Made by a program: the position numbers and the translations under genes. The notes under the pieces were generated by a model. The model had not been told where the DNA came from, searched no databases, and saw only the letters and a program-made list of their open reading frames with translations. Positions 16,480-34,342 of a DNA stretch of 64,000 nt are shown here, in pieces (the stretch's first letter is position 1; every line of letters begins with the position of its first letter). This stretch comes from a bacterium (lineage in GTDB: Bacteria; Bdellovibrionota; UBA1018), in assembly GCA_019751945.1 (NCBI GenBank), contig JAIEMT010000028.1, positions 13,705-77,704 on the forward strand, read 5' to 3'.

Positions 16480-17265
16480 ATGTCGCTGGGACGTTTTTCA
16501 AGGCTTTCACCTCCACTCATTCTGAGCTTACTGACATTCATGACGCCCCAGCTCGGTAACGCAGACCTTTCCATTCCGACGCTCAGCTACCCCAGTCCCA
16601 AAATTTCTGACTCGAAACGCCTGCCACGGGACTCGATGGCTTGTCAGTGGGGCGATGAGAGCACGCTTCCTGGTGAAGGAAATGCGCTTCAACTCACTCG
16701 CGACGTAGAAGATGTCGTGACCCCGAGCACCTACGAATGTTTGAAGTACGAAGAGAAAACACAACGCACCATGGATGACGGCGGAAACTGCGTGGGCGTT
16801 GGCGGTTACCAAGCCTGCTGCGGAATCTTGGATGAGTTTTATTCCAAGTCCTACGTCCCGGTGGAAAACAAGCCGATGAAGCCCGCCGAACTTTACACTC
16901 CCTGTCCGCTCGTCACGGACGAACAAATGCGACGCCAGCAAGCGGCTCCGCTCGGCCAACGCAATGACTTTTCCAACACCGAAGCGAAAACCATTCACGC
17001 GTTGCTGTTAAAATGTTCTCAAAAGCGAGGGCCCAACTCCCCCTTCACTCAGACATTGAGCCGAGACATTGAACGGGCCTATTCGGTTCAGCAACTTTCT
17101 CAGGCCGATCCGCCTCTCGCGGAAGAAACCAATCCGATCCCCGTTCGAAGAGCAGGGTGCCCTGGAAATGGGACACCTGAATGTAACGCTCTCGACCAAA
17201 GAGCCCGAAAATCGCCCGCAATGCCACCTGACGAGAAGCGTCTAGCCTACTGCTGCTGGCGCTAA
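16480..17265 (+). CDS. Secreted cysteine-rich protein (hypothetical)
   Basis: 261 aa. Signal-like SPPLILSLLTFMTPQLGNA, many Cys including CC pairs (ACCGILDEF, and the protein ends AYCCWR). No family recognised. Confidence 0.5.
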   Translation: MSLGRFSRLSPPLILSLLTFMTPQLGNADLSIPTLSYPSPKISDSKRLPRDSMACQWGDESTLPGEGNALQLTRDVEDVVTPSTYECLKYEEKTQRTMDDGGNCVGVGGYQACCGILDEFYSKSYVPVENKPMKPAELYTPCPLVTDEQMRRQQAAPLGQRNDFSNTEAKTIHALLLKCSQKRGPNSPFTQTLSRDIERAYSVQQLSQADPPLAEETNPIPVRRAGCPGNGTPECNALDQRARKSPAMPPDEKRLAYCCWR

Positions 17266-17462: not shown

Positions 17463-19889
17463 GTGACGAAGAAAGTTTTATTCATTTCTATTTTTCTATC
17501 CATGCCGCTACTGGGCTCCACAGGAGCTAACGCTCTCGGGGCCGAGCCACTTTGTAGCTCTCGCTTTGAGCCCAACAGACAATGTTCGGGTCAGCAGATT
17601 TGTAAACTCACCAAGCAAAAAGATAATCTCTGTTTTCAAGGATACTACTATCAATGTGCCGATAACTGTCCCGGTGGCTCCACCACCTCGATGGGAAAAG
17701 CAAAGGCTCCCGGATCGGCGCAAGCCGGTTGGGGCGGACTTGAAAAGAAACCTGCCGCTGGAGCACCTGCTGCTGCAACGACAGCCGGCATCGGAATGAG
17801 CCCCCAAAACTACGGCGGCGGAAATCCCTATCCTCCAGCTACCACTGCTCCCAGCACAGGCACCGGAAAATACACTGCTTCGAAACCTGCAACGGGCGTG
17901 ACGTGTAGAGGTGAGGGCGGTTGCTACAAATCCGACGCTCTCGGAAATCAAATTCCTGTTTACGCGGACGGAAGTCCCGTGAATCCGCATGGCGGCCGAA
18001 CGGATGTCGCTGCGGGTGGTACTTATTATGACCAACGCGGTTCCGCTCCTCCTGCGAACAACGTTCCTGCTGGAGCGGTCGTGGGTACGAATAGCGACGC
18101 TGCAGTTGGCGGTGGCGCTGGTGCGGGATCGGAAGCTTCGCCTTCTACTGTCGGCACTAGCTCAGGCGGTGGTGCACCTGCGATTCCCGGAGGTCTCAAT
18201 GTCTCCGGAAGCGGCAACACCATCAACATTATTACAGGACAAGTTTCGAATAGCTCCTTGGGTGGCGGACCCGCGACGGGAGGCAAGGAAGGCGGAAATA
18301 ATACCGGCGGCGGCAAAAACGATTTGGCTCGAGACAAAGATGGAAATCCTGATCCTAGCGGCCGCACCCAAAAAGAAATCGACATGGAAAATCGAATGAA
18401 ATCGGAGGCGAATCTCCGTGACGCAGAAAAAGCTACTCCTTATGATAGAAACGGTTCAGCCCTCCTATCTTCGGATTCGAGCGACGCTTGCGATACCTCC
18501 AACGGCCTCACTGCTGGAACAGCTTTCGATACAAAATCCTCTTGCGACACTACCAGCAAACGAGTCAAAACTGCCGCTACCACCCGACAAGCTATCGAAT
18601 TAGGCGGTGCGCTGACTACTGGCGTGATGGGAACTATAGCAACTGCCCGTGCACAGAGCAGCAACGGCATCAGTGATGGTCTCGATGCCACTGCAAAATT
18701 ACAAAAAACGACTTCAATGCTTCAAATTGTTTCAGGCGCAGTGAACGGCTTCTTTGGATTTCAACAAAATGAACGAGCAAGTGGTCACGAAGAAACTGCC
18801 AAGGCTATCAAAACGAATGTGAAGAATGAATCATTCATTATGGATAAAGGCGACAAGAACAACGACGGAACAAATGCAGGCGAAGACGGATTTATCCACG
18901 CCAACGAAAATAACGTCATGGCTAAAAATGCGCGGGCTAGAATGACCTTTGGATCATTAGTTGCCGTTCCCGACTCCCCAGAACACATGGCAGGCGGAGT
19001 CAATTCCACCAACGAGAATGCTCGTCAGGTTCTCCTCGCAAAACGAGAAAAAGGAAAAATAGCGAAGATGGGACAACTCAATGAGTTCACCACGAGTATG
19101 CGCAGCCGAGGTTCTCAGGAACAAAATCAAGCCGCTGAGCAAGCAGCCAACGGTGCGACCGATTCCTTCGTTGCTGCTGCCACACAAACCGTTCAAGGCA
19201 TCTTCAACTACATGGGAGCAAAACAACTCGAGCAAGCTTCCGAGAAATTGAAAAACATTCAACAGCCCGGCTCAAACCTGGCTCCGAGTTATGGTTCCGA
19301 TGCTGTTGGCGACGGTTCGGGCGCACGCTCCGCACAAGTCATTACCGGTTCAGGTAAAACTGCCGAACAATCGGCAGCAATCGATCCCGGTTCAGATACG
19401 AACACCACCGGCATGGGCGACTTAGGCCCACAACAAGCTTACGGCACACCTCCCAACACGACTCCGCAAGGCCCGACACCTGGCAACCCGGTTGCTAAGG
19501 GACCGACGGGTGCACCAGGTGGTGGCGGTGGCGGCGCGCCTGGTGGATCGGTTTCGACTCCGCCAGCACAGGCCAAGGACGACCGGCCTCCGGCGCAACT
19601 TCCGATGGGAAGCAACCCGAACAGTTACGCTGCAGGCGGAACTCCTGGCGGTGGCCAAGCCAACAAAAACGGCGCAGGTCCTGACCTAAGCGGCTTGCTC
19701 GGCAAGCTCTTAAACTTCGGCGGTGAAGAGAAGAAGCCGACGGATAGCATCTTGAGCTACGGCACTGCTTCACGCAATCCCGCTTCCGAAGGCGGTGCCT
19801 TTTTTGGAGCCAATGTAAATCTCTTCCGGCGCGTTCACGACACCCTTCAAAAGAAACAAGGAGAAGGTCGGGTCGGCGTCGGAATCTAA
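17463..19889 (+). CDS. Large secreted Gly/Ala/Pro/Ser/Thr-rich protein (cluster protein A)
   Basis: 808 aa. GTG start preceded by a GGGGGAG Shine-Dalgarno. Signal peptide MTKKVLFISIFLSMPLLGSTGANA and a Cys-rich N-terminal patch. Long low-complexity tracts, a poly-Gly run, and a C-terminal motif shared with the next three genes. Confidence 0.7.
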   Translation: MTKKVLFISIFLSMPLLGSTGANALGAEPLCSSRFEPNRQCSGQQICKLTKQKDNLCFQGYYYQCADNCPGGSTTSMGKAKAPGSAQAGWGGLEKKPAAGAPAAATTAGIGMSPQNYGGGNPYPPATTAPSTGTGKYTASKPATGVTCRGEGGCYKSDALGNQIPVYADGSPVNPHGGRTDVAAGGTYYDQRGSAPPANNVPAGAVVGTNSDAAVGGGAGAGSEASPSTVGTSSGGGAPAIPGGLNVSGSGNTINIITGQVSNSSLGGGPATGGKEGGNNTGGGKNDLARDKDGNPDPSGRTQKEIDMENRMKSEANLRDAEKATPYDRNGSALLSSDSSDACDTSNGLTAGTAFDTKSSCDTTSKRVKTAATTRQAIELGGALTTGVMGTIATARAQSSNGISDGLDATAKLQKTTSMLQIVSGAVNGFFGFQQNERASGHEETAKAIKTNVKNESFIMDKGDKNNDGTNAGEDGFIHANENNVMAKNARARMTFGSLVAVPDSPEHMAGGVNSTNENARQVLLAKREKGKIAKMGQLNEFTTSMRSRGSQEQNQAAEQAANGATDSFVAAATQTVQGIFNYMGAKQLEQASEKLKNIQQPGSNLAPSYGSDAVGDGSGARSAQVITGSGKTAEQSAAIDPGSDTNTTGMGDLGPQQAYGTPPNTTPQGPTPGNPVAKGPTGAPGGGGGGAPGGSVSTPPAQAKDDRPPAQLPMGSNPNSYAAGGTPGGGQANKNGAGPDLSGLLGKLLNFGGEEKKPTDSILSYGTASRNPASEGGAFFGANVNLFRRVHDTLQKKQGEGRVGVGI

Positions 19890-19915
19890 ATCCAAGTCTT
19901 AGGGGGACTTCGATA

Positions 19916-21199
19916 GTGACGGGGGAAAAGCAGCGTACTTTGAAGCAGTCCAGCGGGATGGGTCTATTGGCCATTCTACTGGGACAGCTCGGAGTTTTTT
20001 CCACACCTGTGATTTATGCAGCCGACATCGGCTCCGTTTGCGATGGCCCCTCACAAGCGAATATGGATCAACAGCAGCGCCAGCAATATTGCGACGCTGC
20101 CAAGTCTTCGAAATCTTCTGCCAATGCCAACGGCATCATGTGGAAAGTGTGGGCTGGCGTGGCCACTGTTTGCACCGCTGCCTGCGCAGCCACTTTAATG
20201 GGCCAACCGTGGAACCAATGGGTTTGCACCGGTTCGAGCTTAGCAGGCACGGGCGTCGACGCCGTGGTGACTAAGAATCTTCAGACCGCAATGATGGGCA
20301 TTCTCGGCGCAGGTGGAAGCTACATGATCAACAAGACCATGAATAAAGGGGAAACCCCAAAAGTCGGCGCCGATGGAAAAACAAAGCGCCCGGACGATTA
20401 CGGCTCCTGCTTCACCGCTGCGACTTCTGCCCTTCAAACCATGCAAAAAAAGCAGGCTCAATCTTCTGATGAAGGTTCTGTGAGCAGCAATTTAGAAATG
20501 GCTCAGCAATTGGGAAATAGCCCCGCTGCTGCCTATCGCACCGGTGGCCCTGAGGTCGCCGACACTGCGAAATCAGGCGGTCTGGGAATGAGTGTGAAAT
20601 CTGCAGGCATGTCTCCTGCTCAAGCCACGCTCGGCAATATTGCATCCGCCTGCGGTTCGGGTGCTGCCAATGGGAACAGCAAAGCCCAAGTCGCCTGCGC
20701 GCTAGCCATGGACGGAGGGCTTCCAAGCTTTGTCAGCAGTCCGAAATTCGCGAGCGATTTTCAAAAAGCTTCCGGACAAAGTTTAAGTGACTTCTTGAAC
20801 AGCCCGAACGACAACGCAAAAGCCGCATTAGCTGGAGCCATGGGCGGATCGCTGTCCAATTCTCAAAACGTGCAGCTTGCTTCGGCGCTCAACAAAGCAG
20901 AAAAAGAAATCGCACTCGCTCACCCGGTTGCAGGCACGACTTACGCAGGCGGCGGTGGAGGCGGCTACGGCGGTGGCAAGCACTCAGATCCCACGGCTGG
21001 CTTTGGGAATCTGATGCAGGGCCTGATGGGAAAAATGAACGGCACGGAAGAAGCCCGGCCCGGAACGAATCAACAAAATTTCAGACAAGTCGCTTCTCTT
21101 TCTCCCGATGCGATTGTGGAAGATCGCCGCATCAGTCTTTTCCAACGAATCACGCAGCGCTATTCTCAGCATCAACATGAATTGGGAGGTGTTCCATGA
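19916..21199 (+). CDS. Secreted/membrane-interacting Gly/Ala-rich protein (cluster protein B)
   Basis: 427 aa. GTG start with an AGGGGGA Shine-Dalgarno 8 nt upstream. Signal-like MGLLAILLGQLGVFSTPVIYA. Shares the Cys-framed hydrophobic segment with C and D, plus the poly-Gly and C-terminal motif. Confidence 0.7.
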   Translation: MTGEKQRTLKQSSGMGLLAILLGQLGVFSTPVIYAADIGSVCDGPSQANMDQQQRQQYCDAAKSSKSSANANGIMWKVWAGVATVCTAACAATLMGQPWNQWVCTGSSLAGTGVDAVVTKNLQTAMMGILGAGGSYMINKTMNKGETPKVGADGKTKRPDDYGSCFTAATSALQTMQKKQAQSSDEGSVSSNLEMAQQLGNSPAAAYRTGGPEVADTAKSGGLGMSVKSAGMSPAQATLGNIASACGSGAANGNSKAQVACALAMDGGLPSFVSSPKFASDFQKASGQSLSDFLNSPNDNAKAALAGAMGGSLSNSQNVQLASALNKAEKEIALAHPVAGTTYAGGGGGGYGGGKHSDPTAGFGNLMQGLMGKMNGTEEARPGTNQQNFRQVASLSPDAIVEDRRISLFQRITQRYSQHQHELGGVP

Positions 21200-22848
21200 A
21201 ATCACTCCTCCTGATTTTATTTGCTTCGCTGGCTCAAGCGGCGGATACGCCGATCAAGCTCGATCCACTAAAAACAGATTGCGACAGCGTTTGCGGCGAT
21301 TTACTCAGTCTCAATAAGAAGCAAGCCGGCGGTGACGAAAAGAAAATGATGAATCAGGTTTGGACTGCCTCGGACGACGCTTGGTGCGGAGCTCACGGCG
21401 TTTCCACTTCCTCGAAGACTCTTGAAAAACCAGAATCTGAAGTGGTTTCTGTTCCAGGGTGTCCTTACACGGTCACCAAAGCGGACTTAGATGAGGCCAA
21501 AGGCGATCCCAACGCCGCCTGTAACTCGGTTCATCGCTACGTCCGACGCTGCCAGCTTCACAACAGCCAGGTCGAGCCGCAGTGCCTGGCTTACTCCGCA
21601 TCCAATCAGGGAAAAGACCTTCAGATGATCATGCTGGCTCTCGACATCACCGGCACCGGAATCTGCACGGGTTCATGCATGGCCTGGTGGGAAGGTCCGG
21701 TGGCGGAAGGCGTTTGCAAATACACGAGCATGGCCGCCGCAGTGACAGAACTCCTCGGAGTGATTTCGATGAACCAAAGTCCCGTCGGAAAAGCGATTTC
21801 TGGATTGGCTTCTAGTGCAACTCTCGTCAACGCTGTGAATCCCGAGATCGTCGAATCCGGAGCGAAGAGCGTTGGCGCCATGCTCTCAAAAACGAAGCCG
21901 GTTGATAAAATTCAAGATCAACTCGGTGGCGGCGGAAAACGAGGCTCTGCTTGCTTCACCGCTGCGATGCTCGGTGTAATGACGGGAGTGCGTGCTTACA
22001 ACTTATTGAAAGTCGACAAGACTCGCGATCAAGCTTGCAGCGAAGTGCAACGTCTTCAGAGCCAAGCAGCTCTTAGTGACAACGCCAACACCGGACCCAT
22101 CAGCGGATTATCTCTAGCCCCAAAAGGCGGAATGGCTGCCGGCACCTCTGGAACCGCGGGAGTCAGTGCTGCGAAAGGAAGTTCAGGGACCATCGCTTCG
22201 GGCTCTGGCTACAAATCCACCCTGACAATTCAATCACTGCCCTCACAAGCAGCGGGAACATTGGAAGGCGGATTCTTTTCGCAACCAGGCGCAGCTACAC
22301 TCATGACGGGCCCGGCGAATCAGGTTCTCAACGCGCTGGCAGCAAATGCTCTTCAAACGGAAGGACTTGCTTCACTCATTAAAAAGGCTACCGATCCTCG
22401 CGCCGCTGAAATGGCCACACGAATGGGCAATATCGCGCAGCTCGCGCAGCAAGAAGCGCCGAGTTTAATGGCGGGCCCTCTGGCTCGAAAAGGTCTCATG
22501 ACAAACACCGCCGATACTTACAGCGCCCCTGCGGGTGGCGGACCGGGAGGCGGTACACTCACTTTAGGATTTGCCCCAAATTCAGGTCTCTATGGCTCTC
22601 CATTGGGCTTAGGAGGCGGCACGGTTCAAGAAACTCAGTTTAATAAAGGCCTGAGCGCCAAAAATTCTTCGGTCGCTGGCGACGACATTTATCACGCTGG
22701 ATGGCCGGGTAGCATCTTTGATATCATTACGGTGCGGCTGAAAGAGAGCCGCGATCGCGTCGACAAACTCGAGTGGGCATCGCCCCTCAATCGCGCGCTG
22801 ATGGGGTTACCGAACAAACCGATCTCGGGGGGAAGTGCAAAAAAATGA
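21196..22848 (+). CDS. Secreted Cys-framed Gly/Ala-rich protein (cluster protein C, paralog of D)
   Basis: 550 aa. ATGA overlap with B. Signal MKSLLLILFASLAQA. The conserved blocks CDSVCGDL, DDAWCGAH, PGCPYTVT and QCLAYSAS align with D. Confidence 0.75.
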   Translation: MKSLLLILFASLAQAADTPIKLDPLKTDCDSVCGDLLSLNKKQAGGDEKKMMNQVWTASDDAWCGAHGVSTSSKTLEKPESEVVSVPGCPYTVTKADLDEAKGDPNAACNSVHRYVRRCQLHNSQVEPQCLAYSASNQGKDLQMIMLALDITGTGICTGSCMAWWEGPVAEGVCKYTSMAAAVTELLGVISMNQSPVGKAISGLASSATLVNAVNPEIVESGAKSVGAMLSKTKPVDKIQDQLGGGGKRGSACFTAAMLGVMTGVRAYNLLKVDKTRDQACSEVQRLQSQAALSDNANTGPISGLSLAPKGGMAAGTSGTAGVSAAKGSSGTIASGSGYKSTLTIQSLPSQAAGTLEGGFFSQPGAATLMTGPANQVLNALAANALQTEGLASLIKKATDPRAAEMATRMGNIAQLAQQEAPSLMAGPLARKGLMTNTADTYSAPAGGGPGGGTLTLGFAPNSGLYGSPLGLGGGTVQETQFNKGLSAKNSSVAGDDIYHAGWPGSIFDIITVRLKESRDRVDKLEWASPLNRALMGLPNKPISGGSAKK

Positions 22849-24596
22849 AATCTCAATTCGCACTGATTCTTCTCGTCACCCTTCCCCTCTCGTCACCTGC
22901 GTTTGCAGACGGCTGTGACAATATCTGTAATGATCTCGTCTCCAGTTCTGATGGATCGTGGGACATCGTCACTCGCGGTGGCGGTAAAGGTTCAATCAAA
23001 GGCATTCCGGGCCAAGGTGGGGCCGGATGGGATTCCGCCGACGACAATTGGTGTAGCTTTCACAAAAATGGCAGCTCCGCTGGCTCGGCCTTCGATGGAA
23101 AGGGGCCGAACGATCTCGTTGCAGCGCCAGGCTGTCCTTATCGCGTAACGAACTCGGACGTCGCTGCCGCTGGAAGTGCTGCCAATGCTTGCGAATACGT
23201 GAGCAAGGGCGTGAAGCGCTGCGATCTTCGCGGCGGACAGATTGAAGAACAGTGTTTAGCGTACATGTCGGCCGGTGACGGATCGAAGTGGCAGTACATC
23301 TTACTCGCACTCGACTTAACGGCTGCAGGTTCCTGCGCGATGGCTTGCTTCAGCAGTGTCGCCTCCGGTGGAACGACGGAATCGGTTTGCCAGTACGCCG
23401 GCATCGCTGCTGGTGGTACGGAATTGATTGCAACACTTGCGATGAAGAACAGCACGGTTGGAACTTTGATCAACGGCGTGGCTGCAGGTGCAGGCGCTTA
23501 TTCTGCTAACGCCCTATGGACTCAAAATGGCGGCGGTGTTCAGAACATGGGAATATTTCAAGGTAGCGGCGGAACCGGTACCGCGGCAGTGAATCCCAAC
23601 GTGGCAGATGCGGGCGGAATTCAAAGTCAGATCAATGCGGCCTATGCGCCAAAACCCACTGCTCCAGTGAGTACCGCTGGCAACTACAGCCAACCGCTTT
23701 CTCAATCTCAACAGGCTTACAACCAAGGCACCCAAGGCGTGCACATGGGACAACAAGTGGATCCGGTCACAGGTAATACTCCAGCACAAAACGCTGCAAA
23801 GCCCACTCAAGCTCAAGAAACAAAAACCAAAGCCTCGTGCTATGCAGCCGCCGCATTCGGCGTGCTGACCGGCCTTCGCGGTCACAGCATCCTGGGCATC
23901 AAGAAAACCAAAGACCAAGCGTGCGGACAGATCCAATCGCTGCAAGGAAGTCAGAACGTCGCCATCAACTGGAATGGAGTTCCGGGAATGGCCGTCTCTG
24001 CTAGCCAAGGTGGCATCGGATCAGGCGCCAATCAGGGCGGCCTCGGCACGGGCGGCAGCATTGGAAAACTTCCGCAAGGTATTGCTGGCGTTCCTCCGGT
24101 CGCCCTTCAAGCAGTGGATGGAAATCTTCTCAGCAAAACAGGTCTCGACAGAGCGTTGGGTTCGGAAGCAAGCAAGCTGAACCCCGACGCCATCATGAAC
24201 ACTCTTTCTAGCGGCGGTGCGGGCGGCCTGATGAAAAGCGCCCTTGGCAATGCAGCCAACACTCCCGCTGGAGATTCCCTCACTCGACTCGCTCAGACCT
24301 CGCAAGATTCGGCGACCGTCTTCTTAGGCGCAGTCCCAGGCGCCACGATGATGGGCGGAGGCGGCGGTGGAGCAGGCCCGAGCGGAGGCGGAAAAGAGCC
24401 GGGTTTTGCCGGAGCCCTTGCTTCCCTCTTAGGTGGCGAAGGCGGCGATCGATCCCCCGCAGGCGCTTCGATGACCAATTTCGGAAATCCAGCTGGAAAT
24501 ACCGATATTTGGCATGCCGGTTCGACCGACAACATCTTTCAAATCGTCACTCGTCGAATCGAACGCGTTACCAGTCGCGTGGTTCAAAATCGCTAG
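22845..24596 (+). CDS. Secreted Cys-framed Gly/Ala-rich protein (cluster protein D, paralog of C)
   Basis: 583 aa from the ATG at 22845 (ATGA overlap with C; the ORF track starts at 22773). Signal MKSQFALILLVTLPLSSPAFA. The blocks CDNICNDL, DDNWCSFH, PGCPYRVT and QCLAYMSA align with C. Confidence 0.75.
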   Translation: MKSQFALILLVTLPLSSPAFADGCDNICNDLVSSSDGSWDIVTRGGGKGSIKGIPGQGGAGWDSADDNWCSFHKNGSSAGSAFDGKGPNDLVAAPGCPYRVTNSDVAAAGSAANACEYVSKGVKRCDLRGGQIEEQCLAYMSAGDGSKWQYILLALDLTAAGSCAMACFSSVASGGTTESVCQYAGIAAGGTELIATLAMKNSTVGTLINGVAAGAGAYSANALWTQNGGGVQNMGIFQGSGGTGTAAVNPNVADAGGIQSQINAAYAPKPTAPVSTAGNYSQPLSQSQQAYNQGTQGVHMGQQVDPVTGNTPAQNAAKPTQAQETKTKASCYAAAAFGVLTGLRGHSILGIKKTKDQACGQIQSLQGSQNVAINWNGVPGMAVSASQGGIGSGANQGGLGTGGSIGKLPQGIAGVPPVALQAVDGNLLSKTGLDRALGSEASKLNPDAIMNTLSSGGAGGLMKSALGNAANTPAGDSLTRLAQTSQDSATVFLGAVPGATMMGGGGGGAGPSGGGKEPGFAGALASLLGGEGGDRSPAGASMTNFGNPAGNTDIWHAGSTDNIFQIVTRRIERVTSRVVQNR

Positions 24597-24647: not shown

Positions 24648-24723
24648 GGGGGTATAGCTCAGTTGGTAGAGCGCTTCCATGGCATGGAAGAGGTCCTCGG
24701 TTCGAGTCCGTGTACCTCCACCA
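24648..24723 (+). tRNA. tRNA-Ala (anticodon GGC)
   Basis: 76-nt cloverleaf folded by hand: acceptor GGGGGTA/TACCTCC with the G3:U70 Ala identity pair, anticodon stem CTTCC/GGAAG, loop ATGGCAT (GGC), T-loop TTCGAGT and encoded CCA. There is one U-U mismatch in the T-stem. Confidence 0.9.
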
Positions 24724-24770: not shown

Positions 24771-24913
24771 AATGCACGGCAGATTTGCCAGGAGGGCAAA
24801 TCTAGCGAGGAACCCCCTCAGACGTCGCTCCAAAAAAATTCTCTCAATGCACGGCAGATTTGCCAGGAGGGCAAATCTAGCGAGGAACCCCCTCAGACGT
24901 CGCTCCAAAAAAA
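24771..24913. repeat. Perfect 68-bp direct repeat x2 (period 75 bp)
   Basis: Copy 1 (24771-24838) and copy 2 (24846-24913) are identical base for base and separated by TTCTCTC. Each copy contains a 9-bp-stem hairpin AGATTTGCC-AGGAG-GGCAAATCT. Confidence 0.9.
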
Positions 24914-24979: not shown

Positions 24980-25417
24980 TCATGCGGACTTGCTCCCGCG
25001 ATTTTTCATTTCGGGAAGACTCTCGAGTTCGCTCACCACGACTGTGATCTCAGCCTTAAGTCCTTTGATCAGATCCGCAGCACCGGTGACGCTCCCACCT
25101 CTTCCAATCTGTTCAATGCGGGCACAGAAATCTGCCATCTGAGTGGCTCCTAAATTTGCTGAACTGGATTTCAATCCATGACTCTCTGCACGGAGTAAAT
25201 CGGCGTTTCCCGCTTGAAAGGCTTTCTCAATCTTTGCAAGACGCTCCGGAATGCTCTGGATGAACATATTCAACAAGTTGACAAAAAATCCCGGGTCCGA
25301 ATCCGATTGCAGCTCCCGAATCTCGTTAATGATATCGATATTGATCGGTTTACCCATTTTGGCCAATCCCTCTCCATAGAGAGTCCTATTACTTTTGGAA
25401 TGAATCGGCATATTCAC
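24980..25417 (-). CDS. Stand-alone histidine phosphotransfer (Hpt) protein
   Basis: 145 aa. Hpt signature LRAESHGLKSSSANLGA (HxxKG/S-type phospho-His helix). Divergent from the hybrid kinase genes. Confidence 0.8.
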   Translation of the reverse strand: MNMPIHSKSNRTLYGEGLAKMGKPINIDIINEIRELQSDSDPGFFVNLLNMFIQSIPERLAKIEKAFQAGNADLLRAESHGLKSSSANLGATQMADFCARIEQIGRGGSVTGAADLIKGLKAEITVVVSELESLPEMKNRGSKSA

Positions 25418-25500
25418 GAAAAAAACTTAGCACCATTCTTCATAGTTTTTTGAATCAAATTCGGGAACTTAGATTCCGAAAAGCTCTGTAGGGAAACCAC

Positions 25501-28386
25501 GTGAAAAAAATTCGGGACCTCACCCCAAAAGCAGTCGTCTACCCGCTCGCAGTTTTCGGGTTCCTCTTTTTAGCGACTCTGAATATTTGGCACGGCTTCG
25601 TTCAAACCGAAGCTCGTCGAAACCAGCTTGCATCAGCCGACCAAACCGAAAACATCGCTCAGCAAGTGGAACGCGGACTCGAAGAACGCGTCACTGGATT
25701 GCAACGCATGGTGAGCCGCTGGGAATATCGCGGCGGAACACCCAAGAATGAATGGGTCGCTGACATTTCCAATTACTATCGCGATATGCCGGGCTTCTTG
25801 GCATTTTCTTGGATCGACCAAGATTTTATTATTCGCTGGATCTATCCTGAAAATCTCAATCAACATATTGCTGGGACAAGTGCTCGTCGCAGCGAAGAAC
25901 GGATTCACGCACTCGACTTAGCTAAACTGACTCACAAGCCTGCGTTCACACGATCCGTGGACCTCTTAGTGGGCGGCATTGGATTCGGACTTTACCTCCC
26001 TGTCTACGTCAAAGGAAAATTTCAGGGAATTATTTCTGCTGGATTTCGCCACCATGAACTGCTCGGCAAACTCGTCCACGCGGAGGGGTACCTGGTTCAG
26101 ATTCGCGAGGATAAACAAGTCATTTTCAATTCGGACAACAAGGCACCTACTCCACAAACTTGGGCAGCTACGAAAGTTTTGAAATACCGCACGCTGGAAT
26201 GGACCATCGAAGTGAGTCCTACCACTGCGGTTCCCACCTCTCCCGAAGAAACCGCCTTGACCTGGTTGGTTCTACTAGGTGGAATTCTCTTCGCAATCTT
26301 AGCAGGTGCACTGGTCCGCTACTTCCTGATCTTCAGAGAACAAGAAGCCAAAGCTCAAATAAGTTTACAGTGGCAAAACGCTATCTTTGAAAGCACCCCC
26401 CAACTCATCATTGCAACGGATCCTCGAGGAGTGATCGTCACTTTCAACCCCGCCGCAGAAAAATATCTCGGGTACAAAGCCTCCGAGGTCATTGGAAAAC
26501 TCACACCTCTAGCCTTTAGAGATCCAGCTGAAGTGGAAGCCAAAAACAAGGCCCTTACTGAAGAATTAGGAACACCCATCAAGCCTGGCTTTGACACCTT
26601 AGTTGAAAAAGCAAAACTGGGCGTCGTTGAAGAACAAGAAGTCACCTATGTCAAAAAAGATGGAACCAAGATGGCGGTTTCACTAATCGTCTCCGCCATT
26701 CGGGACTCCAACGGAGAAATCAGCGGTTACCTCGGCGTAGTTTCCGACATCGCTGCAAAAAAACAGGCGATTGCGGCTATAGAGCAGGCTAAAGAATCCG
26801 CTCTTGAAACATCCAAGGCCAAAAGCGCGTTTTTGGCCAACATGAGCCATGAAATACGTACGCCACTCAATGGCATCATAGGCATGACGGATCTCCTCAT
26901 CGAAACCCCACTAGATGAGCAGCAAAAACGCTGGGCCAAAATCATTCAGGACTCCGGAACCGGTCTTCTCAACATCATCAATGACATTCTGGATTTCTCA
27001 AAAATTGAAGCAGGAAAACTCAACCTTGAATTAATTAATTTCCGTCTCGTCAGCGTCATCGAGGGACAGATCGAACTTCTCACCGCGCGCGCGAGAGAAA
27101 AAAATATTTCTCTGATGGCCTATATCGATCCAGCAATTCCGGAGAATATTCAAGGAGACCCGGGCAGAATCGGACAAGTTTTGCTGAACTTGACTGGAAA
27201 CGCAGTAAAATTTACGAACCAAGGATCCGTGGTGGTGAGTGCCTCGCTAAAACAGGAAAGCGCAGACAGCGTGGTAATTGAATTTAGCGTGAAAGACACA
27301 GGAATTGGAATTTCAGAATTACTAAGAAAAGATCTCTTCGCACCCTTTACTCAAGCAGACAGTTCAACCGCACGAAGATTCGGCGGAACCGGCCTGGGTC
27401 TTTCGATTTGTAAAAGACTCGTCGAGCTTATGGATGGGAGCATCGGCGTCGACAGCGAATTAGGAAAAGGTTCCAACTTTTGGTTTACTGTCCGACTCAA
27501 AAAACAAAAAACGGCAGAACTCATTCATCTGGATCGATTCATTGAACTCAAGGGTCTGCGGGCCCTTGTCGTGGATGACGATACTCCTTCCCGCGAAATC
27601 GTCTGTAAATACTTAGAAAGCTGGGGTCTCGAACCCACTGTAACGGACAACGGCCAAGACGGCTTAATGATCCTCAAACGCGAAAAGGTTCAAGGAAAGC
27701 CATTTGATCTAGCCATTGTCGATAAGCGCATGCCGGGAATGGACGGCTTTCTTTTACTAGAAAAGGTTCAACAGACCGACGATATCGCAAATACGCCCGT
27801 TATTCTGATGACGGCATTTGATCGCTCAAATCAATTCGACTCCGCAATTCAAGCGGGCTTCAAGGGGTACATTACGAAGCCCATTAAGCAATCAGAACTT
27901 TACAATAGCATTGTGAATTCGGTCGCACCGGCCTCCCAAATTCCAAAAAAAGAGTCCGTGGTGCCAACAACTTCTCAAGCACAGATGGTCGGCGACAAAC
28001 CATTCCGGATTTTGATAGCCGAGGACAACGGCGTCAATCAGCTTCTGATTCTGACCATATTAAAAAAACTGAAGTATCCGGCTCTTGCCGTTGCAAACGG
28101 AAAGGAAGTTCTCGAAGCCGTAGCCAGTGCCCATTACGACCTCATCCTCATGGACTGTCAAATGCCTGAGATGGATGGATTTCAGGCGACCCAAGAGATT
28201 CGTAAGCGAGAAAAAGAAACCGGAATCCATATTCCCATCATTGCTCTCACCGCCAATGCGATGAAAGAAGACGAAGACCGCTGCTTAGCTGCAGGCATGG
28301 ACGGATACCTCTCTAAACCCATCAAGGTCGACAAACTCACCGCCATGCTGGACCGATGGCTAATAAAAATAAAGAAGGTCGGGTAG
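25501..28386 (+). CDS. Hybrid sensor histidine kinase (extracytoplasmic sensor, PAS, HisKA, HATPase, 2 x REC)
   Basis: 961 aa with a GTG start. Two TM segments flank a periplasmic domain of about 230 aa (CHASE-like, tentative), followed by a PAS region. H-box [11 protein letters not shown] and G2 [11 protein letters not shown]. Receiver domains have DKRMPGMDG and [10 protein letters not shown]. Confidence 0.9.
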
Positions 28387-30144
28387 ATGAAAAAGGACCG
28401 AGAGATCTACCTAAAAATTGCTTCAGAATCCCGATTTGCATCGTTCATCTACTTAGTACTCTTTTGTGCTCTTGGCTTTCTCACTCCGATTTTTAGAGAA
28501 TTTCCAATTCAGTGCCTTCTTTTTGGGATTGGGTTCTTTCTTGCCGGAGTTGCCCGCTACATTCTGTCCTCTAAGTTTTCCAACCAGAGAATTAGCATCC
28601 TCACTTTCAAGAGATTCTACTCCAGCACTGTGCTTCTGAGCGGAGCTCTCTGGGGGTATTTCTGCTTCTTGAACATTTTACGCTACGGAGTCACTCCTAC
28701 CACTTTAATTGTCTTACTTCCTACCGCCGGAATTGCCAGTGGATGCGTGATGAGTCTGGCACTAGTTCCTAGAACACTGATCACGCAACTCTTACTCTTA
28801 CTCGTTCCGGTGATTGTAGGATTCGTCGTTCAAGGAGGAGAAAGCTCAACAGCTTACGCCGTCCTGAGTAGCATCTACACGATTTACCTCATTCTGCTTT
28901 CAAAGAATCTCGCTGAAAGTTCTATGGCGAGCTTGGAGAAGACAGTCATCATCTCTCAACAGAAGGAGGAACTGGAGCTGGCTTGGGAGAAAGCGGAGAT
29001 GGGTGCTAGAACAAAATCAGAATTTCTAGCCATGATGAGCCATGAAATCCGAACCCCTCTCAACGGTGTTCTGGGAATGACAGGTCTTCTTCTCGATCAA
29101 GATTTAAAGGCGGAAGCAAAAGGTTTTGTAGAAACCATCCGAAGCTGCGGTGAAAACTTACTCGTCATCATCAATGACATTTTAGATTTCTCAAAGCTCG
29201 AATCTGGAAAAATCGCACTCGAGAATCACAACTTTGAATTGGTTCATTGCGTGAGTTCTTCAATTCAATTTTTTGAAAGCCTTGCCCAGAAAAAGGGGTT
29301 GTCACTGACTTACTATGTGGATCCGAGCTCTCCAAAAATGTTCATCGGAGACGCGAATCGGGTTCGCCAGATCCTGGTCAATCTCATCAGCAATGCGGTG
29401 AAGTTCACTGAAAAGGGATCTGTGGACATTACGGTGACTTCTTCACAAAAAACCATCAACCTCCACGAACTTCGGTTCGCAGTGGTGGATACTGGAATCG
29501 GAATTCCATCCGAAAATCTCCCAAAGCTCTTTCAATATTTTTCTCAGGTCGATGGCTCTGTCACCCGCAAATACGGCGGAACGGGTTTGGAACTCGCTAT
29601 CTGTAAACGCCTTTGTGAAATGATGAACGGTCAAATCTGGGTTGAAAGCGAACCCAACAAGGGTTCTGCCTTCTATTTTACAATTCAGGTTCAAGTAGCC
29701 GCTGACGATGCTGTCCCATTCACTGAAGAAATCATTCCGAAAAGAAGTGTCCGAAACAAAAAGCGGATTCTTCTTGCAGAAGACAATACAGTGAACCAAC
29801 TTCTGGCAGCAAAACTTTTAGAAAAAGCCGGCTATCACACCGATATAGCCACCAACGGAATTGAAGCAGTTCAGGCCGTTAAGGATTTCAATTACGATCT
29901 CGTTTTGATGGACTGTCAAATGCCTGAACTAGATGGGTACGAGGCAACACGGCAGATCCGACGAATTGAAGAATTCAAAGACCTCCCGATTGTGGCGCTC
30001 ACGGCGAATGCGCTTCAAGGAGACCGGGAGCAATGCCTCGCTGCCGGAATGAGCGACTACATTTCTAAGCCTGTGCAGTACTCTGAACTGGTTAAAATAT
30101 TAGATAAGTGGCTTGGACCTTCTGAACAAAAAAAAACAGGCTAG
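28387..30144 (+). CDS. Hybrid sensor histidine kinase (multi-TM sensor, HisKA, HATPase, REC)
   Basis: 585 aa, starting 1 nt after the previous stop. About 5-6 N-terminal TM helices. H-box [12 protein letters not shown]2-like GGTGLELAICK and a receiver with MDCQMPELDG. Confidence 0.9.
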   Translation: MKKDREIYLKIASESRFASFIYLVLFCALGFLTPIFREFPIQCLLFGIGFFLAGVARYILSSKFSNQRISILTFKRFYSSTVLLSGALWGYFCFLNILRYGVTPTTLIVLLPTAGIASGCVMSLALVPRTLITQLLLLLVPVIVGFVVQGGESSTAYAVLSSIYTIYLILLSKNLAESSMASLEKTVIISQQKEELELAWEKAEMGARTKSEFLAMMSHEIRTPLNGVLGMTGLLLDQDLKAEAKGFVETIRSCGENLLVIINDILDFSKLESGKIALENHNFELVHCVSSSIQFFESLAQKKGLSLTYYVDPSSPKMFIGDANRVRQILVNLISNAVKFTEKGSVDITVTSSQKTINLHELRFAVVDTGIGIPSENLPKLFQYFSQVDGSVTRKYGGTGLELAICKRLCEMMNGQIWVESEPNKGSAFYFTIQVQVAADDAVPFTEEIIPKRSVRNKKRILLAEDNTVNQLLAAKLLEKAGYHTDIATNGIEAVQAVKDFNYDLVLMDCQMPELDGYEATRQIRRIEEFKDLPIVALTANALQGDREQCLAAGMSDYISKPVQYSELVKILDKWLGPSEQKKTG

Positions 30145-30230
30145 AGAACCTCGCACCCACCCTTTGGATGAAATAGTTTCCAGAATATTTCCGGCAAAAA
30201 AATGGCGGGCCAAAATCTCCTCCCGCCTCA

Positions 30231-31655
30231 ATGACTATTGGAATATTCCGTTCTTTAGATAAAATAATGACAGATCATATGGATACCTCACCCGAGCACA
30301 AGCGCGTTTTAGTCGTCGACGATGACGACGAACTCTCATCCTTGGTAGCCGAAATTATGCGAAGCCAGAACTGGGAGGTAACCACCGCCCAGAATGGTCG
30401 CATTGCTCAACAGATTCTAAAAACCACATCTTTTGATCTTGTCATCTCCGATATCCAGATGCCCGAGATGAACGGCATTGAACTCACTCGCCTCATCAAA
30501 AAGGGGAATAAAAAAACTCCTGTGATTTTGATCACGGCTTTTCACGAATTACTCGAAACTCATGAAGCGCATTCCGCAGGGGCCGATGAATTTGTTCCCA
30601 AGCCATTCTCATCCGAAGATATCTTGCTTGCTGTTGCTCGTTGCCAAGGAAAGGCCGCTGAAAAAGAGACTAAGGAATCCGACTATTGCCGAGTGGCCAT
30701 TCACGATTTTGTTTCCGGCCGCCAAATCAACTACAGCATTTACCTCCGCCTCTCCGCGGAAAAATTCGTGAAAATCGCACACCGCGGAGAGGACCTTTCA
30801 ACTGAACGCATTCAGCTTTATAAAACAAAAGGCGTAAAACACCTCTATCTCCATCTCGATGATTTTCGACGCTACGTTGGCTTCCAAATCAATGTATTAA
30901 AAATGACCAAAGATGGGCCGACGATAACGGAGGAAGAAAAGAGGGAGCTCGTCACGCGAACCCACGAACTAGTCCAAGAACAAATTCGTCGCGAAGGCAT
31001 TGATCCAAACAATTTTGACAGTGCATCCGAGTTTGTTGAAACGATGATAAGTCTGATTGCTGACGATGCCGATCTTTACGATATTTTAAAATCGCTCAAT
31101 TCTCACACGGACTATCTCTACGCCCATAGCTTGGGCGTCAGTGTCTACGGAGTACTCATCGCGCAGAATGTCGGATGGCATCTCCCCACCAATAAATTCA
31201 AGGTGGCGTTAGGAGGACTTCTCCACGATGTAGGTCATCGCGAGATTGATGTCGACCTTCTCAGCAAACCTCGGCGCAACTGGAGTTTGGATGAACTCAA
31301 TAAGTATGAGCAGCATCCGCTCCGAGGAATTGATATCGTCAAACAACTTCCCAACATTGCATCTGACGTCAGTCAAATCATCAAAGAGCATCATGAAAGC
31401 TGCACCGGCAAAGGATACCCGAACAGTATTCGTCGCAGTATGATTCATCCTATGGCCAAGCTCATTGCTGTGGTTGACGAGTTTTGTGAGCTCGTCATTT
31501 CTAATCCAGATAGTCCCGGCATGTCGCCTAAAGAAGCCATCGAACGAATGTTCTCCCTAGACACTGAAAAATTCGACGCCCACTTCTTGGAAGCCCTCAT
31601 CAAGGTCTGCAAAGTTCCGATTCCAGAAAAATTGCGCTCGACCCGCATGGTTTAG
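30231..31655 (+). CDS. Response regulator with HD-GYP c-di-GMP phosphodiesterase domain (RpfG-like)
   Basis: REC domain (VLVVDDDD...SDIQMPEMNG) followed by an HD-GYP domain (LLHDVGH, HHESCTGKGYP). The start is uncertain: ATGs at 30231, 30267 and 30279. Confidence 0.85.
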   Translation: MTIGIFRSLDKIMTDHMDTSPEHKRVLVVDDDDELSSLVAEIMRSQNWEVTTAQNGRIAQQILKTTSFDLVISDIQMPEMNGIELTRLIKKGNKKTPVILITAFHELLETHEAHSAGADEFVPKPFSSEDILLAVARCQGKAAEKETKESDYCRVAIHDFVSGRQINYSIYLRLSAEKFVKIAHRGEDLSTERIQLYKTKGVKHLYLHLDDFRRYVGFQINVLKMTKDGPTITEEEKRELVTRTHELVQEQIRREGIDPNNFDSASEFVETMISLIADDADLYDILKSLNSHTDYLYAHSLGVSVYGVLIAQNVGWHLPTNKFKVALGGLLHDVGHREIDVDLLSKPRRNWSLDELNKYEQHPLRGIDIVKQLPNIASDVSQIIKEHHESCTGKGYPNSIRRSMIHPMAKLIAVVDEFCELVISNPDSPGMSPKEAIERMFSLDTEKFDAHFLEALIKVCKVPIPEKLRSTRMV

Positions 31656-31673
31656 TGCTACGCTCGTATCAGA

Positions 31674-32363
31674 ATGAAACCGTTTTCTCCCCGCGCGTTC
31701 GCATTCCTCGGATTTCTGGTACTTTGTTTCGTTGCTTTTAGGTTGGGATCGGACTACCCGCTCACGCTCGGAAATTTAAAATCTCACATCGACACCCTGA
31801 GAAGCTTTTATCGAGCTAATCCCATTCAAACCTACGCCTACTTTACAGCGATCTTTACGATGATCACTGCGCTTTCGGTTCCAGGCCTGGCCATCGTCGG
31901 GCTCGCCGGAGGCGCTCTTTTCGGATTCTGGGGCGGATTTATCGTGCTGAGTTTCGGAGCCACTCTTGGAGCCACACTCGCATTTCTGAGTTCGCGATAC
32001 TTTCTTCGAGAAGGGGTGCAGAAGAAGTTTCAACCTCAGTTGAAGAAAATTAACGCAGGCTTCAAAAAAGAAGGGCGCTACTACCTCTTTAGTCTTCGCC
32101 TAGTGCCCATCATTCCCTTTTTTATGACAAATATTCTGATGGGCCTCACCTCCATTTCGACGCGCGATTTCAGCGCCATTACCTGGGCCGGCATGCTCCC
32201 GGGGATAGCCGTCACCGTAAACGCCGGAATCCAGCTCCAGAACATTCAATCGCCCTTAGATATAGTGACACCCCAACTCCTAGGATCTTTCGCCCTAATA
32301 GCCCTTCTCCCGCTTCTGACAAAGAAGGCTCTGGCCCATTTTTCGAGTAAAAAAACGTCATAA
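31674..32363 (+). CDS. TVP38/TMEM64 (DedA/SNARE-associated) family membrane protein
   Basis: 229 aa with 5-6 TM helices. Family-typical segments FGFWGG..., RLVPIIPFFMTNILMG. Confidence 0.75.
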   Translation: MKPFSPRAFAFLGFLVLCFVAFRLGSDYPLTLGNLKSHIDTLRSFYRANPIQTYAYFTAIFTMITALSVPGLAIVGLAGGALFGFWGGFIVLSFGATLGATLAFLSSRYFLREGVQKKFQPQLKKINAGFKKEGRYYLFSLRLVPIIPFFMTNILMGLTSISTRDFSAITWAGMLPGIAVTVNAGIQLQNIQSPLDIVTPQLLGSFALIALLPLLTKKALAHFSSKKTS

Positions 32364-32420
32364 GTTTGACAACTACTCCGACTCCAGATCGCTGATATTT
32401 CTTCCGATAAGTCCTCTAGC

Positions 32421-33404
32421 GTGAGTGTCACTAAAGTTCGGTATTCAAAACTCGCTCCATACTCAGATCTCTTCGAGAGATTGCTCGACAACGTGTATCT
32501 GATTGATTCGGAGACTTTCGAAGTCCTGGAAGCAAATCCCGCCGGGGAGCGATTGCTCGCGGACTCGCATGAACAGATTCTAGGGAAGTCGATTGTTCAG
32601 TGGATTACCTTTCCTAAAGCGGCCGAGATTCAAAAATCCTTCCGAGTTTCTCGTCGTCGCTACCATCCCCGAATGTTTGAAACCGTTTGGAAAACCTTGG
32701 ATGGAAATCTTCACACGATGGAAGTACTCGCCTGCCCACTCACTCTCTCTAGCGGCAAAGAAGTATTGCAGCTCATTGTGAGAGACATCACCTTCCGTAA
32801 AGAAGCGGAAGCAAAAATGCAGAAAATGTTGGACGAGCTTCAAACCGTCAACGCCAAACTCGAACAGCTCACCATCATGGACGAGATGACGGGACTCTTC
32901 AATTTCAGGCATTTTTCAGCCTGTTTAGAGCGAGAACATCAGAGAGCTCAACGCATTCCTACTCCTTATTCGATCATCTTCATCGACATCGATCACTTCA
33001 AGAAATATAACGATCGCAACGGACATCCCGCGGGCGACAAACTTCTCAAAGAATTTGGACAGATTCTGAAAAAAACGGCTCGTGAAGTCGACGTCGTCTC
33101 TCGCTACGGCGGGGAAGAGTTCGCAGTGATTTGTCCCGGGACAGAATCTCCAGGTGCCGTTCGAGCCGCGGAAAGAATCCGAGACGCGATTGAAAAAAAT
33201 CCATTCGAGTTTGGTGAATTTCAGCCGCTTGGAAAAGTCAGCGCCAGTATCGGTGTTTCTACTTACCCCGGGGATGGAGCAGACTCCAAAACCATTCTCA
33301 AAGCAGCTGACGAAGCTCTTTATGCTGCAAAATCCTTGGGTAGGAATCGGGTCTGTCTCTTCCAGGAGATCACTGGCAAGGTCCAGACCAAAAAAACTGC
33401 GTAA
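32421..33404 (+). CDS. PAS-GGDEF diguanylate cyclase
   Basis: 327 aa with a GTG start. PAS region, then a GGDEF domain with an intact active site RYGGEEFAV and the C-terminal ADEALYAAKSLGRNR. Confidence 0.85.
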   Translation: MSVTKVRYSKLAPYSDLFERLLDNVYLIDSETFEVLEANPAGERLLADSHEQILGKSIVQWITFPKAAEIQKSFRVSRRRYHPRMFETVWKTLDGNLHTMEVLACPLTLSSGKEVLQLIVRDITFRKEAEAKMQKMLDELQTVNAKLEQLTIMDEMTGLFNFRHFSACLEREHQRAQRIPTPYSIIFIDIDHFKKYNDRNGHPAGDKLLKEFGQILKKTAREVDVVSRYGGEEFAVICPGTESPGAVRAAERIRDAIEKNPFEFGEFQPLGKVSASIGVSTYPGDGADSKTILKAADEALYAAKSLGRNRVCLFQEITGKVQTKKTA

Positions 33405-33437
33405 TCCTCATAATCCTCGTATTCCTCGCAATCCCAA
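33402..33437. repeat. Imperfect 9-bp tandem repeat x4 beginning at the stop codon
   Basis: TAATCCTCA / TAATCCTCG / TATTCCTCG / CAATCCCAA. The first TAA is the stop codon of the PAS-GGDEF gene. Confidence 0.6.
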
Positions 33438-33512
33438 GTGGCGCATTGCGTTAAATTACCAATATTTAATTAAACGGATGTCATTGCCGAAAAGAAGGCA
33501 AGAGGTCTGTAT

Positions 33513-34307
33513 ATGCAGGAACCGAATAAAACGAATGTGGAAAGCATCCACTCGTCTCACAAAGGATTCAAGGGAATCTTTGAAACCGCTCTTCGCCGTT
33601 TCAAAGTCGCGATGCACCTGATTTCAACACTCCCTTTGTACGCCTTGGGTTCAGTCTGCATCGGCGTCGCATTTCTTCCGGGAATCGCTGCCTTTCACTG
33701 GATTCAAACAAGCGTCGAAGGCACGCCGACCTTAGTTCAATATTTTGCGACCGGAACCTCCTTGGCTCTTGGGTATTTCATGTACGGCTTCACGATGCTT
33801 TTTTTGATGCCGCTGATTAATCTCATCATGAGAACTTCCTTAAAACCCTGGAGAGGGCCGTATTTTTCGGCTGAGGCTGTGAAGTGGTATATTCACAACG
33901 GCATCACCTATTTGGTTCGTTTTACTTTTCTAGAATTTGTCACTCCGACTCCATTCAACGTTCTCTTCTACAAAATGATGGGAATGAAGATTGGAAAAGG
34001 AACCCAGATTAATTCGACGTATATTTCAGATCCCTGTCTGATCACCCTTGGAAAAAATGTCACGATTGGGGGATCGGCAACGATCACGGGGCATTATGGC
34101 CAAGGGGGATTCTTGGTACTCGCTCCGGTGAAAATTGGAGATGGATGCACGATCGGTCTTCGCGCGACGGTGTTGGGCGGAGTGACGATTGGTGATGGAG
34201 CAAAGATTCTTCCGAACTCCGTAGTTCTACCGAAGACCGTCGTTCCCGCGGGTGAGACCTGGGGTGGGGTGCCGGCGCAGAAGTTTACTTTTCACAAAGC
34301 TGCCTAA
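33513..34307 (+). CDS. Membrane-anchored hexapeptide-repeat (LbH) acyltransferase-like protein
   Basis: 264 aa. The N-terminal half has about 3-4 TM helices. The C-terminal half has LbH repeats (IGKGTQINSTYISDPCLITLGKNVTIGGSATITGH...IGDGCTIGLRATVLGGVTIGDGAKI). Confidence 0.7.
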   Translation: MQEPNKTNVESIHSSHKGFKGIFETALRRFKVAMHLISTLPLYALGSVCIGVAFLPGIAAFHWIQTSVEGTPTLVQYFATGTSLALGYFMYGFTMLFLMPLINLIMRTSLKPWRGPYFSAEAVKWYIHNGITYLVRFTFLEFVTPTPFNVLFYKMMGMKIGKGTQINSTYISDPCLITLGKNVTIGGSATITGHYGQGGFLVLAPVKIGDGCTIGLRATVLGGVTIGDGAKILPNSVVLPKTVVPAGETWGGVPAQKFTFHKAA

Positions 34308-34342
34308 TACTGGCTACTGGCTACTGGCTACTGGCTACAGGT
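34308..34342. repeat. Heptamer tandem repeat TACTGGC x4 plus one degenerate copy
   Basis: TACTGGC at 34308, 34315, 34322 and 34329, then TACAGGT. The array starts immediately after the TAA stop at 34305-34307. Confidence 0.85.

Follow-up and report, generated by a model that had tools for sequence, protein, structure and literature searches.

The closest described counterparts of a C-terminal element shared by several exported proteins are the C-terminal sorting signals, such as PEP-CTERM (exosortase), GlyGly-CTERM (rhombosortase), LPXTG (sortase), MYXO-CTERM and the C-terminal domain (CTD) of the type IX secretion system (T9SS), which stand at the extreme C-terminus of several Sec-exported proteins per genome. 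The hallmark of a sorting signal is a motif with a transmembrane helix and a basic cluster at the C-terminus, and the T9SS CTD is a β-sandwich of ~80-100 aa (PF18962, TIGR04183). Substrates of the type I secretion system (T1SS) of the RTX kind have no Sec signal and carry GGxGxD nonapeptide repeats and an uncleaved C-terminal signal. In the flagellar axial proteins (rod, hook, hook-associated proteins and flagellin), shared termini constitute the assembly interface, and the ClyA-family toxins (AhlABC/SmhABC, Hbl/Nhe, YaxAB) are paralogous, secreted, all-α proteins encoded in operons and assembled in a fixed order. Here we compare with these systems a cluster of four genes, termed A, B, C and D, in a 64,000-nucleotide stretch of contig JAIEMT010000028.1 (hereafter, the window) from a bacterium of the Bdellovibrionota, the products of which end in a common C-terminal module that we call the tail.

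At the level of sequence comparison, the tail is established as an ancient domain, strongly constrained and restricted, among the matches inspected, to two always co-encoded architectures. It is a domain of an A-B(-C-D) system specific to the Bdellovibrionota, and neither the domain nor the system is represented in Pfam, NCBIfam or the PDB, both being previously undescribed; a literature search found no account of such a system in Bdellovibrio. The sharing of a homologous C-terminal module by co-encoded exported proteins is an arrangement already known, but this domain is new.

The four genes and their common tail

The four genes lie head to tail on the + strand. Gene A (17463..19889, 808 aa), delimited by its open reading frame (ORF) and translation and by orthologues in other loci (designated L001, L003, L004, L005, L007, L009, L011, L012 and L014-L019), codes for a protein that consists of a Sec signal peptide, an N-terminal half that varies and is Cys-rich and of low complexity, a conserved helical core rich in Gln, Ala and Gly in which two cysteines are invariant and, finally, the tail. 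The product of gene B (19916..21199, 427 aa) combines a signal peptide, eight conserved cysteines and the tail, and genes C (21196..22848, 550 aa) and D (22845..24596, 583 aa) code for paralogues of B and of each other with 12 conserved cysteines apiece. The length of D is counted from the ATG that overlaps the stop codon of C, which is also the gene call in L001; in the ORF list, D starts further upstream, with a GTG at 22773. At the B/C (ATGA) and C/D junctions, the stop codon of one gene overlaps the start codon of the next, and a Sec-type signal peptide is present at the N-terminus of all four proteins. Pfam and NCBIfam scans of full-length A-D at E<=1 yielded no meaningful match.

About 85-100 residues long, the tail is a genuine domain at the C-terminus. 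In A (19623..19886, + strand, aa 721-808) it comprises a SYAAGG..GGG hinge, a first helix (GPDLSGLLGKLLNF), an EEKK linker, the elements ILSYG and SRNPAS and a second helix (NVNLFRRVHDTLQKK), and in B (20939..21196, + strand, aa 342-427) a TYAGGGGGG hinge, helix 1 (GFGNLMQGLMGKMN), the segment NFRQVASLSPDA and helix 2 (ISLFQRITQRYSQH). The C tail (22534..22845, + strand, aa 447-550) consists of GGGPGGG, a degenerate helix 1, DDIYHAG and helix 2 (SIFDIITVRLKESRDRV), and ends in a C-specific extension, LEWASPLNRALMGLP, of pattern LEWxTPLNRALxGLP. In D (24348..24593, + strand, aa 502-583) an MMGGGGGG hinge is followed by helix 1 (GFAGALASLLGGEGG), MTNFGNPAG, TDIWHAG and helix 2 (NIFQIVTRRIERVTSRV). 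The motif strings that a preliminary description of this DNA had quoted for the four proteins were all recovered in the translations where it had placed them.

When 26 A and B tails from 13 loci are aligned, six elements stand out: a conserved Tyr with a run of Gly behind it (Y-A/E-GGGG); a short helix, GPDLSGLLAQFLPKK in A and DxxMxGLMxQLNP in B (generically (D)LSGLLxQFL or MxGLMxQL); a charged linker; a ΦFAN or ΦDFG turn (NGILDFG in A, GVxAVIFAN in B); an R-S-P-A-S turn; and a final helix, SLLDxNxNIFERIHxTYQDK in A and VAEDxxLSIFDRVTYRY in B, with the generic form Φ-F-x-R-Φ-x-x-x-Y, in which a hydrophobic face is conserved with arginines on either side. Their order (Y-x-GGGG, helix 1, linker, ΦFAN/ΦDFG, RSPA, ΦF-x-R/I-Φ) is the same in all 13 independent loci, in agreement with the conserved order first proposed. 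In the C and D tails, DDIWHxG is found where B has VAED, the end reads SIFxIVSxKL and helix 1 is degenerate; because the poly-Gly run and helix 1 are weak or absent in some C and D members, the original assertion that all four proteins share every element holds best for the last helix. The 'L..W(A/S)..N(R)' extension of C is also present on some B-like proteins (P0142, P0048, P0098 and P0152), which therefore form a bridge between the two tail types.

Conservation is concentrated in this region. Three core cysteines and, in the final helix, F409, R411, R415 and Y416 are invariant in 100 B-family sequences, and the tail/final-helix segment is the most conserved part of B (mean top-residue frequency 0.66, against <=0.44 elsewhere). 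In A, the 95 C-terminal residues share 95% identity between the window and L001, and the rest of the protein 78%; in D, the corresponding values are 100% and 83%.

Pairwise BLASTP comparison of the single window tails with composition correction gave only E=0.03-0.6, and orthologues were therefore collected and family profiles compared. The A and B tail profiles aligned with an hhalign score of 56.5, whereas 100 column shuffles scored 10.2±1.9 and the reversed alignment 19.3; with deeper alignments, they matched in register over 79 columns (Prob 98.3, P=1.4e-14). The deep B tail profile matched that of C/D in register from the Y-x-GGGG element to the IF helix (78 columns, Prob 88, P=3e-6), with 1 of 100 shuffles reaching that score, and the A tail matched the C/D tail, also in register, over 90 columns (P=0.0035). 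A hidden Markov model (HMM) built from A and B tails only retrieved D at E=7e-5 among the six-frame ORFs of the window and the compared loci, and matched no other ORF in the 64 kb window. The presence of one shared module in all four proteins, as claimed at the outset, is thus confirmed; the tails are homologous, and their similarity is due neither to composition nor to recent events.

The contrary view, that the likeness is a low-complexity or compositional artefact or the product of recent gene conversion in this genome, could draw on the richness of the region in Gly, Ala and Ser and on the feeble E-values of the single tails. It is refuted by the shuffle, reversal and profile controls, the first two of which score far lower than the true alignment, and is further at odds with the constant order of elements in 13 distant loci and with the invariance of residues other than Gly. 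Moreover, both types of tail, that of A and that of B, are conserved across orders, and their similarity is therefore ancient and not recent. The probability that we would still grant this view is negligible.

The extent to which the carriers themselves are related differs among the four proteins. C and D match each other at E=1e-32 in BLASTP, and B matches C/D over 369 columns (hhalign score 93.6, null 14.7±2.6; Prob 97.4), so that B, C and D are full-length paralogues and the tail common to these three is a matter of simple inheritance. By contrast, deep profiles of the A and B cores detected no hidden homology (P=0.21). The description of the carriers as otherwise divergent is therefore apt for A as compared with B, C and D and does not apply among the latter three, and the only true case of one module on unrelated cores is A versus B/C/D.

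Distribution across the Bdellovibrionota

The family was collected by exhaustive HMMER search with a 74-position A/B-tail profile seeded with the B tail module, which identified the module in 290 representative public proteins at E<=1e-3, 62 of them at E<=1e-10. Word-indexed searches with D, a B alignment or an A alignment returned 2-4 proteins each and badly under-reported the family, because low-complexity words saturate the candidate list. Architectures were inspected for the best 150 of the 290 matches. In a sample of 158 proteins, made up of these 150 and related proteins, the module ends a median of 3 and a maximum of 37 residues from the C-terminus.

The matches divide into 115 B-like, 16 A-like and four C/D-like proteins and 24 without assignment. 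Ten of the last are fragments and 14 are full-length; a deeper core profile recognizes eight of these 14 as strongly B-like and P0152 as only marginally so, and the remaining full-length ones have a B-type tail and no core match. Among the best 150 of the 290 matches no third architecture was seen, all assignable full-length ones being A-type or B-type. A hydrophobic, signal-like N-terminal region is present in 117 of 130 full-length matches, in which the commonest cysteine count is 8. Members of the new family can be described as Sec-exported products of A-B(-C-D) clusters with a tail match at most ~40 residues from the C-terminus, and this description covers A-D, the 290 database representatives and the proteins of the 13 loci in which A adjoins B.

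The cluster was found in the close relative L001, with the same gene order and 80-99% identity, and in distant contigs (L003, L004-L007, L009, L011, L012, L014, L015 and L016), a scan of metagenomic loci with a 10-sequence alignment being among the searches used. Among these, L004 is a Bacteriovoracaceae metagenome-assembled genome (MAG) and L005 and L006 belong to the Bdellovibrionota FG-1 and FG-2, which have been placed in class UBA1018 (PMC13200544); the system therefore spans several classes or orders of the phylum. A adjoins B in 13 loci, which include Bdellovibrionales MAGs, FG-1 and FG-2 of UBA1018 and the Bacteriovoracaceae MAG. Three long contigs (L017, annotated as 'Bdellovibrionales bacterium', L018 and L019) carry the A-B pair only; A-B is therefore the ancestral core of the system, and C and D are lineage-specific paralogues of B. 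In these contigs the pair adjoins dnaE, a hexapeptide-repeat gene and a miaB-like gene, the last two of which are also found upstream of the cluster in L001.

Some further features of individual loci may be recorded. The A proteins of L017-L019 contain long Lys/Glu/Ala/Gln-rich stretches that are candidate coiled coils, the endings of the A and B tails are more alike there (A has NIFEEISKRYQKK, B has SLFARIAFRYRKN), and the pair is surrounded by scattered Fic, helix-turn-helix and nucleotidyltransferase genes of the toxin-antitoxin kind. In FG-1 (L005, 5390-6685 and 8700-9433), a 429-nt tandem repeat (3 copies, 83% matches) separates gcvH from A, two small ORFs (98 and 146 aa), a putative toxin-antitoxin pair, are inserted in front of B, after A, and B is not followed by C or D.

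Possible docking, sorting or anchoring by the tail

AlphaFold2 modelling of B with a 5-sequence alignment was unusable (mean confidence, pLDDT, of 36.6) and a 100-sequence alignment was used instead, giving an all-α model with pLDDT 72.9 and a predicted template modelling score (pTM) of 0.65. The model predicts a long helical hairpin (helices 51-94 and 163-201) with a hydrophobic, Gly/Ala-rich tip of low confidence, a confident helical domain at aa 235-335, a Gly hinge with pLDDT <50 and a tail made of helices only, of which the terminal one (408-423) reaches pLDDT ~80. Foldseek comparison of this model with the PDB returned nothing significant (best E 1.3, TM <0.25), ClyA and bestrophin appearing only in the noise (ClyA entries at E ~3, TM 0.17-0.24); PDB profile searches with the A and B families gave no match either, and Pfam searches with 100 B-family members gave only five single-member chance matches. 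Long helical hairpins with a hydrophobic, Gly/Ala-rich tip are a feature of B, C and D alike, with invariant cysteines inside a hydrophobic helix (KVWAGVAxVCxxAC) and a second helical domain (CAxAxDxxLPxFVxxPxFxxxFxKxxG); this architecture loosely resembles that of multi-component α-helical membrane-active proteins, in a fold without a PDB match.

The reading that we favour, tentatively, is that the tail is a common docking or assembly domain for co-translated exported proteins, which corresponds to the common interaction helix that the preliminary description had offered as an alternative and which we regard as the best reading; its mechanism is inferred. A, B, C and D are Sec-exported, disulfide-bonded, α-helical proteins, the core of the system being the adjacent pair A then B, to which some lineages, that of the window included, add C and D, translationally coupled to B. 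Carried on a flexible Tyr-poly-Gly hinge, the tails would join the co-produced proteins tail-to-tail or, in an alternative form of docking, attach each protein to one shared envelope partner. As A adjoins B in 13 loci, the only constant companions of tail-bearing proteins are other tail-bearing proteins, and this constancy, together with the translational coupling of B, C and D, makes docking or assembly the most economical reading. It is supported also because the tails are homologous across unrelated cores, C-terminal and strongly constrained.

The flagellar axial proteins offer an analogy for how such a system might work, since they too are co-encoded, partly paralogous, exported and α-helical, with homologous terminal helices and divergent middles. 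They differ in having no Sec signal and no cysteines, in conserving both termini and in belonging to the Flg_bb_rod, Flg_bbr_C and Flagellin_N/C families; none of the flagellar axial domains was matched in Pfam by A-D, by the isolated tails or by 100 B-family members.

Several observations weigh against docking. C and D have lost the invariant Arg and Tyr residues of B, so that the four tails are not equivalent, and each tail may simply pack back on the core of its own protein. Co-variation of the A and B tails within genomes is weak (permutation p=0.004 overall) and mostly due to clade structure (p=0.04 and 0.67 within clades), and for this reason was not used as evidence. Furthermore, the set of architectures comes from the best 150 of the 290 matches, together with the window and the loci compared.

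Packing on the carrier is also the essence of a different explanation, according to which the tail is an integral part of the fold of each protein, shared by descent and acquired by A through an old domain fusion. It would account well for B, C and D, which inherit the tail as full-length paralogues, and it agrees with the fairly high pLDDT of the terminal helix in a monomer model and with the divergence of C and D at residues invariant in B. Nevertheless, it would require two different packing surfaces for the same tail on the unrelated A and B cores, it sits poorly with the long, low-confidence Gly hinge that separates tail and core, and no other segment of the protein is as constrained as the tail. 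We therefore consider it improbable.

The preliminary description had instead put forward a sorting, anchoring or assembly tag unlike those established. With regard to known tags, the novelty stands: the NCBIfam models of PEP-CTERM, GlyGly-CTERM, LPXTG and MYXO-CTERM and those of the T9SS CTD (PF18962, TIGR04183) were matched neither by the full proteins at E<=1 nor by the tails at E<=10, and Pfam and NCBIfam searches with the isolated tails at E<=10 gave nothing relevant. The tail shares with the C-terminal sorting signals its extreme C-terminal position on several Sec-exported proteins of one genome, as well as the flexible, low-complexity linker that precedes it. It differs in residing, among the best 150 of the 290 matches, on two always co-encoded architectures rather than on varied cargo, and in having neither the transmembrane helix and basic cluster of the hallmark arrangement nor, in the loci compared, a linked sortase or transporter; no transmembrane segment scoring >=1.5 was found in the last 100 residues of A-D (Kyte-Doolittle, 19-aa window). 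Its predicted α-helical structure is likewise unlike the T9SS β-sandwich. T1SS export is equally out of keeping with A-D, which have Sec signals, a Gly homopolymer without nonapeptides and no HemolysinCabind match in Pfam. The tail is probably not a sorting tag of the sortase or secretion type.

In a broader version, a dedicated machine would read the tail as a C-terminal signal for sorting, secretion or processing, for instance in crossing of or attachment to the outer membrane, and a neighbouring S8 subtilase, or a Gly-Gly endopeptidase acting at the poly-Gly hinge, may then remove it. In favour of this version, the carriers are exported, the tail is strictly C-terminal behind a flexible hinge, and the conserved R-S-P-A and Y-x-GGGG could be cleavage sites. 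An orthologous S8 subtilase gene lies between gcvH and A in L007 (3053-4582), L014 (5933-7477) and L015 (6333-7946), and a second, larger set lies downstream of the cluster in L014 (17296-19746) and L011 (10478-12730). These genes could be a processing partner of the system or mere synteny.

A universal partnership is rejected, since BLAST comparison of the five S8 proteins with all six-frame ORFs gave no match in the window, L001, L004 or L005, which have no other conserved partner gene either; no secretion, sortase-like or chaperone gene is consistently linked to the cluster in the loci compared. The tail is moreover confined to A-type and B-type proteins among the assignable full-length members of the 150 inspected matches, with no other ORF carrying it in the window or the loci compared, contrary to what is expected of a sorting tag. 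We thus judge a dedicated sorting or processing signal to be rather unlikely. Much the same holds for a bolder combination, that of a Bdellovibrionota-specific targeting and assembly signal to a common envelope or prey-contact structure, perhaps cleaved at the poly-Gly or RSPA sites by the linked subtilase or a Gly-Gly endopeptidase, which we rate as unlikely too.

The amphipathic character of the tail raises a further alternative, an in-plane membrane anchor of the PBP5 type in which basic helices on a Gly hinge lie on the periplasmic face of the membrane. Helix 2 is amphipathic and aromatic-rich, with a net charge of +2 to +3 and a hydrophobic moment (muH) of 0.5-0.66 in A, B and D, and short amphipathic C-terminal helices are what anchor periplasmic proteins such as PBP5 and PBP6. 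Unlike these, however, the tail is a multi-element module of ~85 residues, and its helix, hydrophilic on average, is not clearly membrane-seeking: the mean hydrophobicity is negative, the moment is unexceptional (0.02-0.11 of shuffles reach the observed value) and the consensus A helix 2 has a net charge of -1. The helix 2 values probably lie below the Eisenberg surface-seeking boundary. The hydrophobic moment gives a membrane anchor moderate support and makes no convincing case for it, and the negative hydrophobicity and moderate moment of the tail helices are more in keeping with a protein interface.

In a related version, A-D would be a multi-component, membrane-active α-helical complex and the tail would drive its assembly on membranes. 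The likeness here is to the ClyA-family α-pore-forming toxins, as in both an operon codes for secreted all-α paralogues in which long hairpins end in a hydrophobic tip, which in B, C and D is Gly/Ala-rich, and ClyA does figure among the non-significant Foldseek matches. Those matches stay at E ~3 and TM <0.25, and are thus no indication of a common fold (Foldseek E>1); no HlyE or HBL domain was detected by Pfam in 100 B-family members. A-D further differ from the ClyA family in their poly-Gly hinge and conserved C-terminal module, and from toxins in general in the conserved housekeeping synteny of the cluster across the phylum. Taken together, the anchor and its membrane-active version seem to us doubtful.

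Genomic neighbourhood and significance

Between positions 18001 and 24000 of the window, GC content is 0.54-0.555, compared with 0.46-0.52 in the flanks, and AT skew is strongly positive (up to 0.18); the high GC and the skew fit the coding bias of Gly/Ala/Gln/Asn-rich proteins and not a foreign origin. Scans for promoters and terminators around the cluster gave results at chance level. Upstream of A, a gene on the + strand (16480-17265) encodes a Cys-rich protein of 261 aa with 11 cysteines, a signal-like N-terminus and the ending CCWR, which has no Pfam or NCBIfam match and was found only in the window and L001. This lineage-specific protein fills the slot between gcvH and A that the S8 subtilase occupies in L007, L014 and L015. 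Downstream, a tRNA-Ala(GGC) gene (24648-24723) begins 52 nt past the stop codon of D and is followed by a perfect tandem repeat (24771-24913; 75-nt unit, 1.9 copies, 100% identical). The region from 24980 to 35000, annotated from the syntenic L001, is a dense signalling block with an Hpt protein (- strand), a CHASE/PAS hybrid histidine kinase, a second hybrid kinase, a response regulator with an HD domain and a PAS-GGDEF protein.

In the Bdellovibrionota, bacteria that are predators or resemble them, much of the machinery of the envelope and of prey contact has yet to be characterised. The present analysis defines in them a phylum-wide syntenic pair (A-B) or quartet (A-B-C-D) with one highly constrained C-terminal domain in common. 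The tail provides a handle with which to find the system in genomes, in the form of a short HMM and of the F-x-R-x3-R-Y signature invariant in the B family, and a clear experimental target for the assembly or destination of A-D. Were it only a structural domain, it would still be a new domain family worth a database entry; were it a targeting or assembly signal, it would represent a new class of sorting or assembly tag, an addition to the few types of C-terminal tag described in bacteria, and would point to a new phylum-wide cell-surface apparatus. The finding is relevant to research on the Bdellovibrionota envelope as well as on protein sorting signals.

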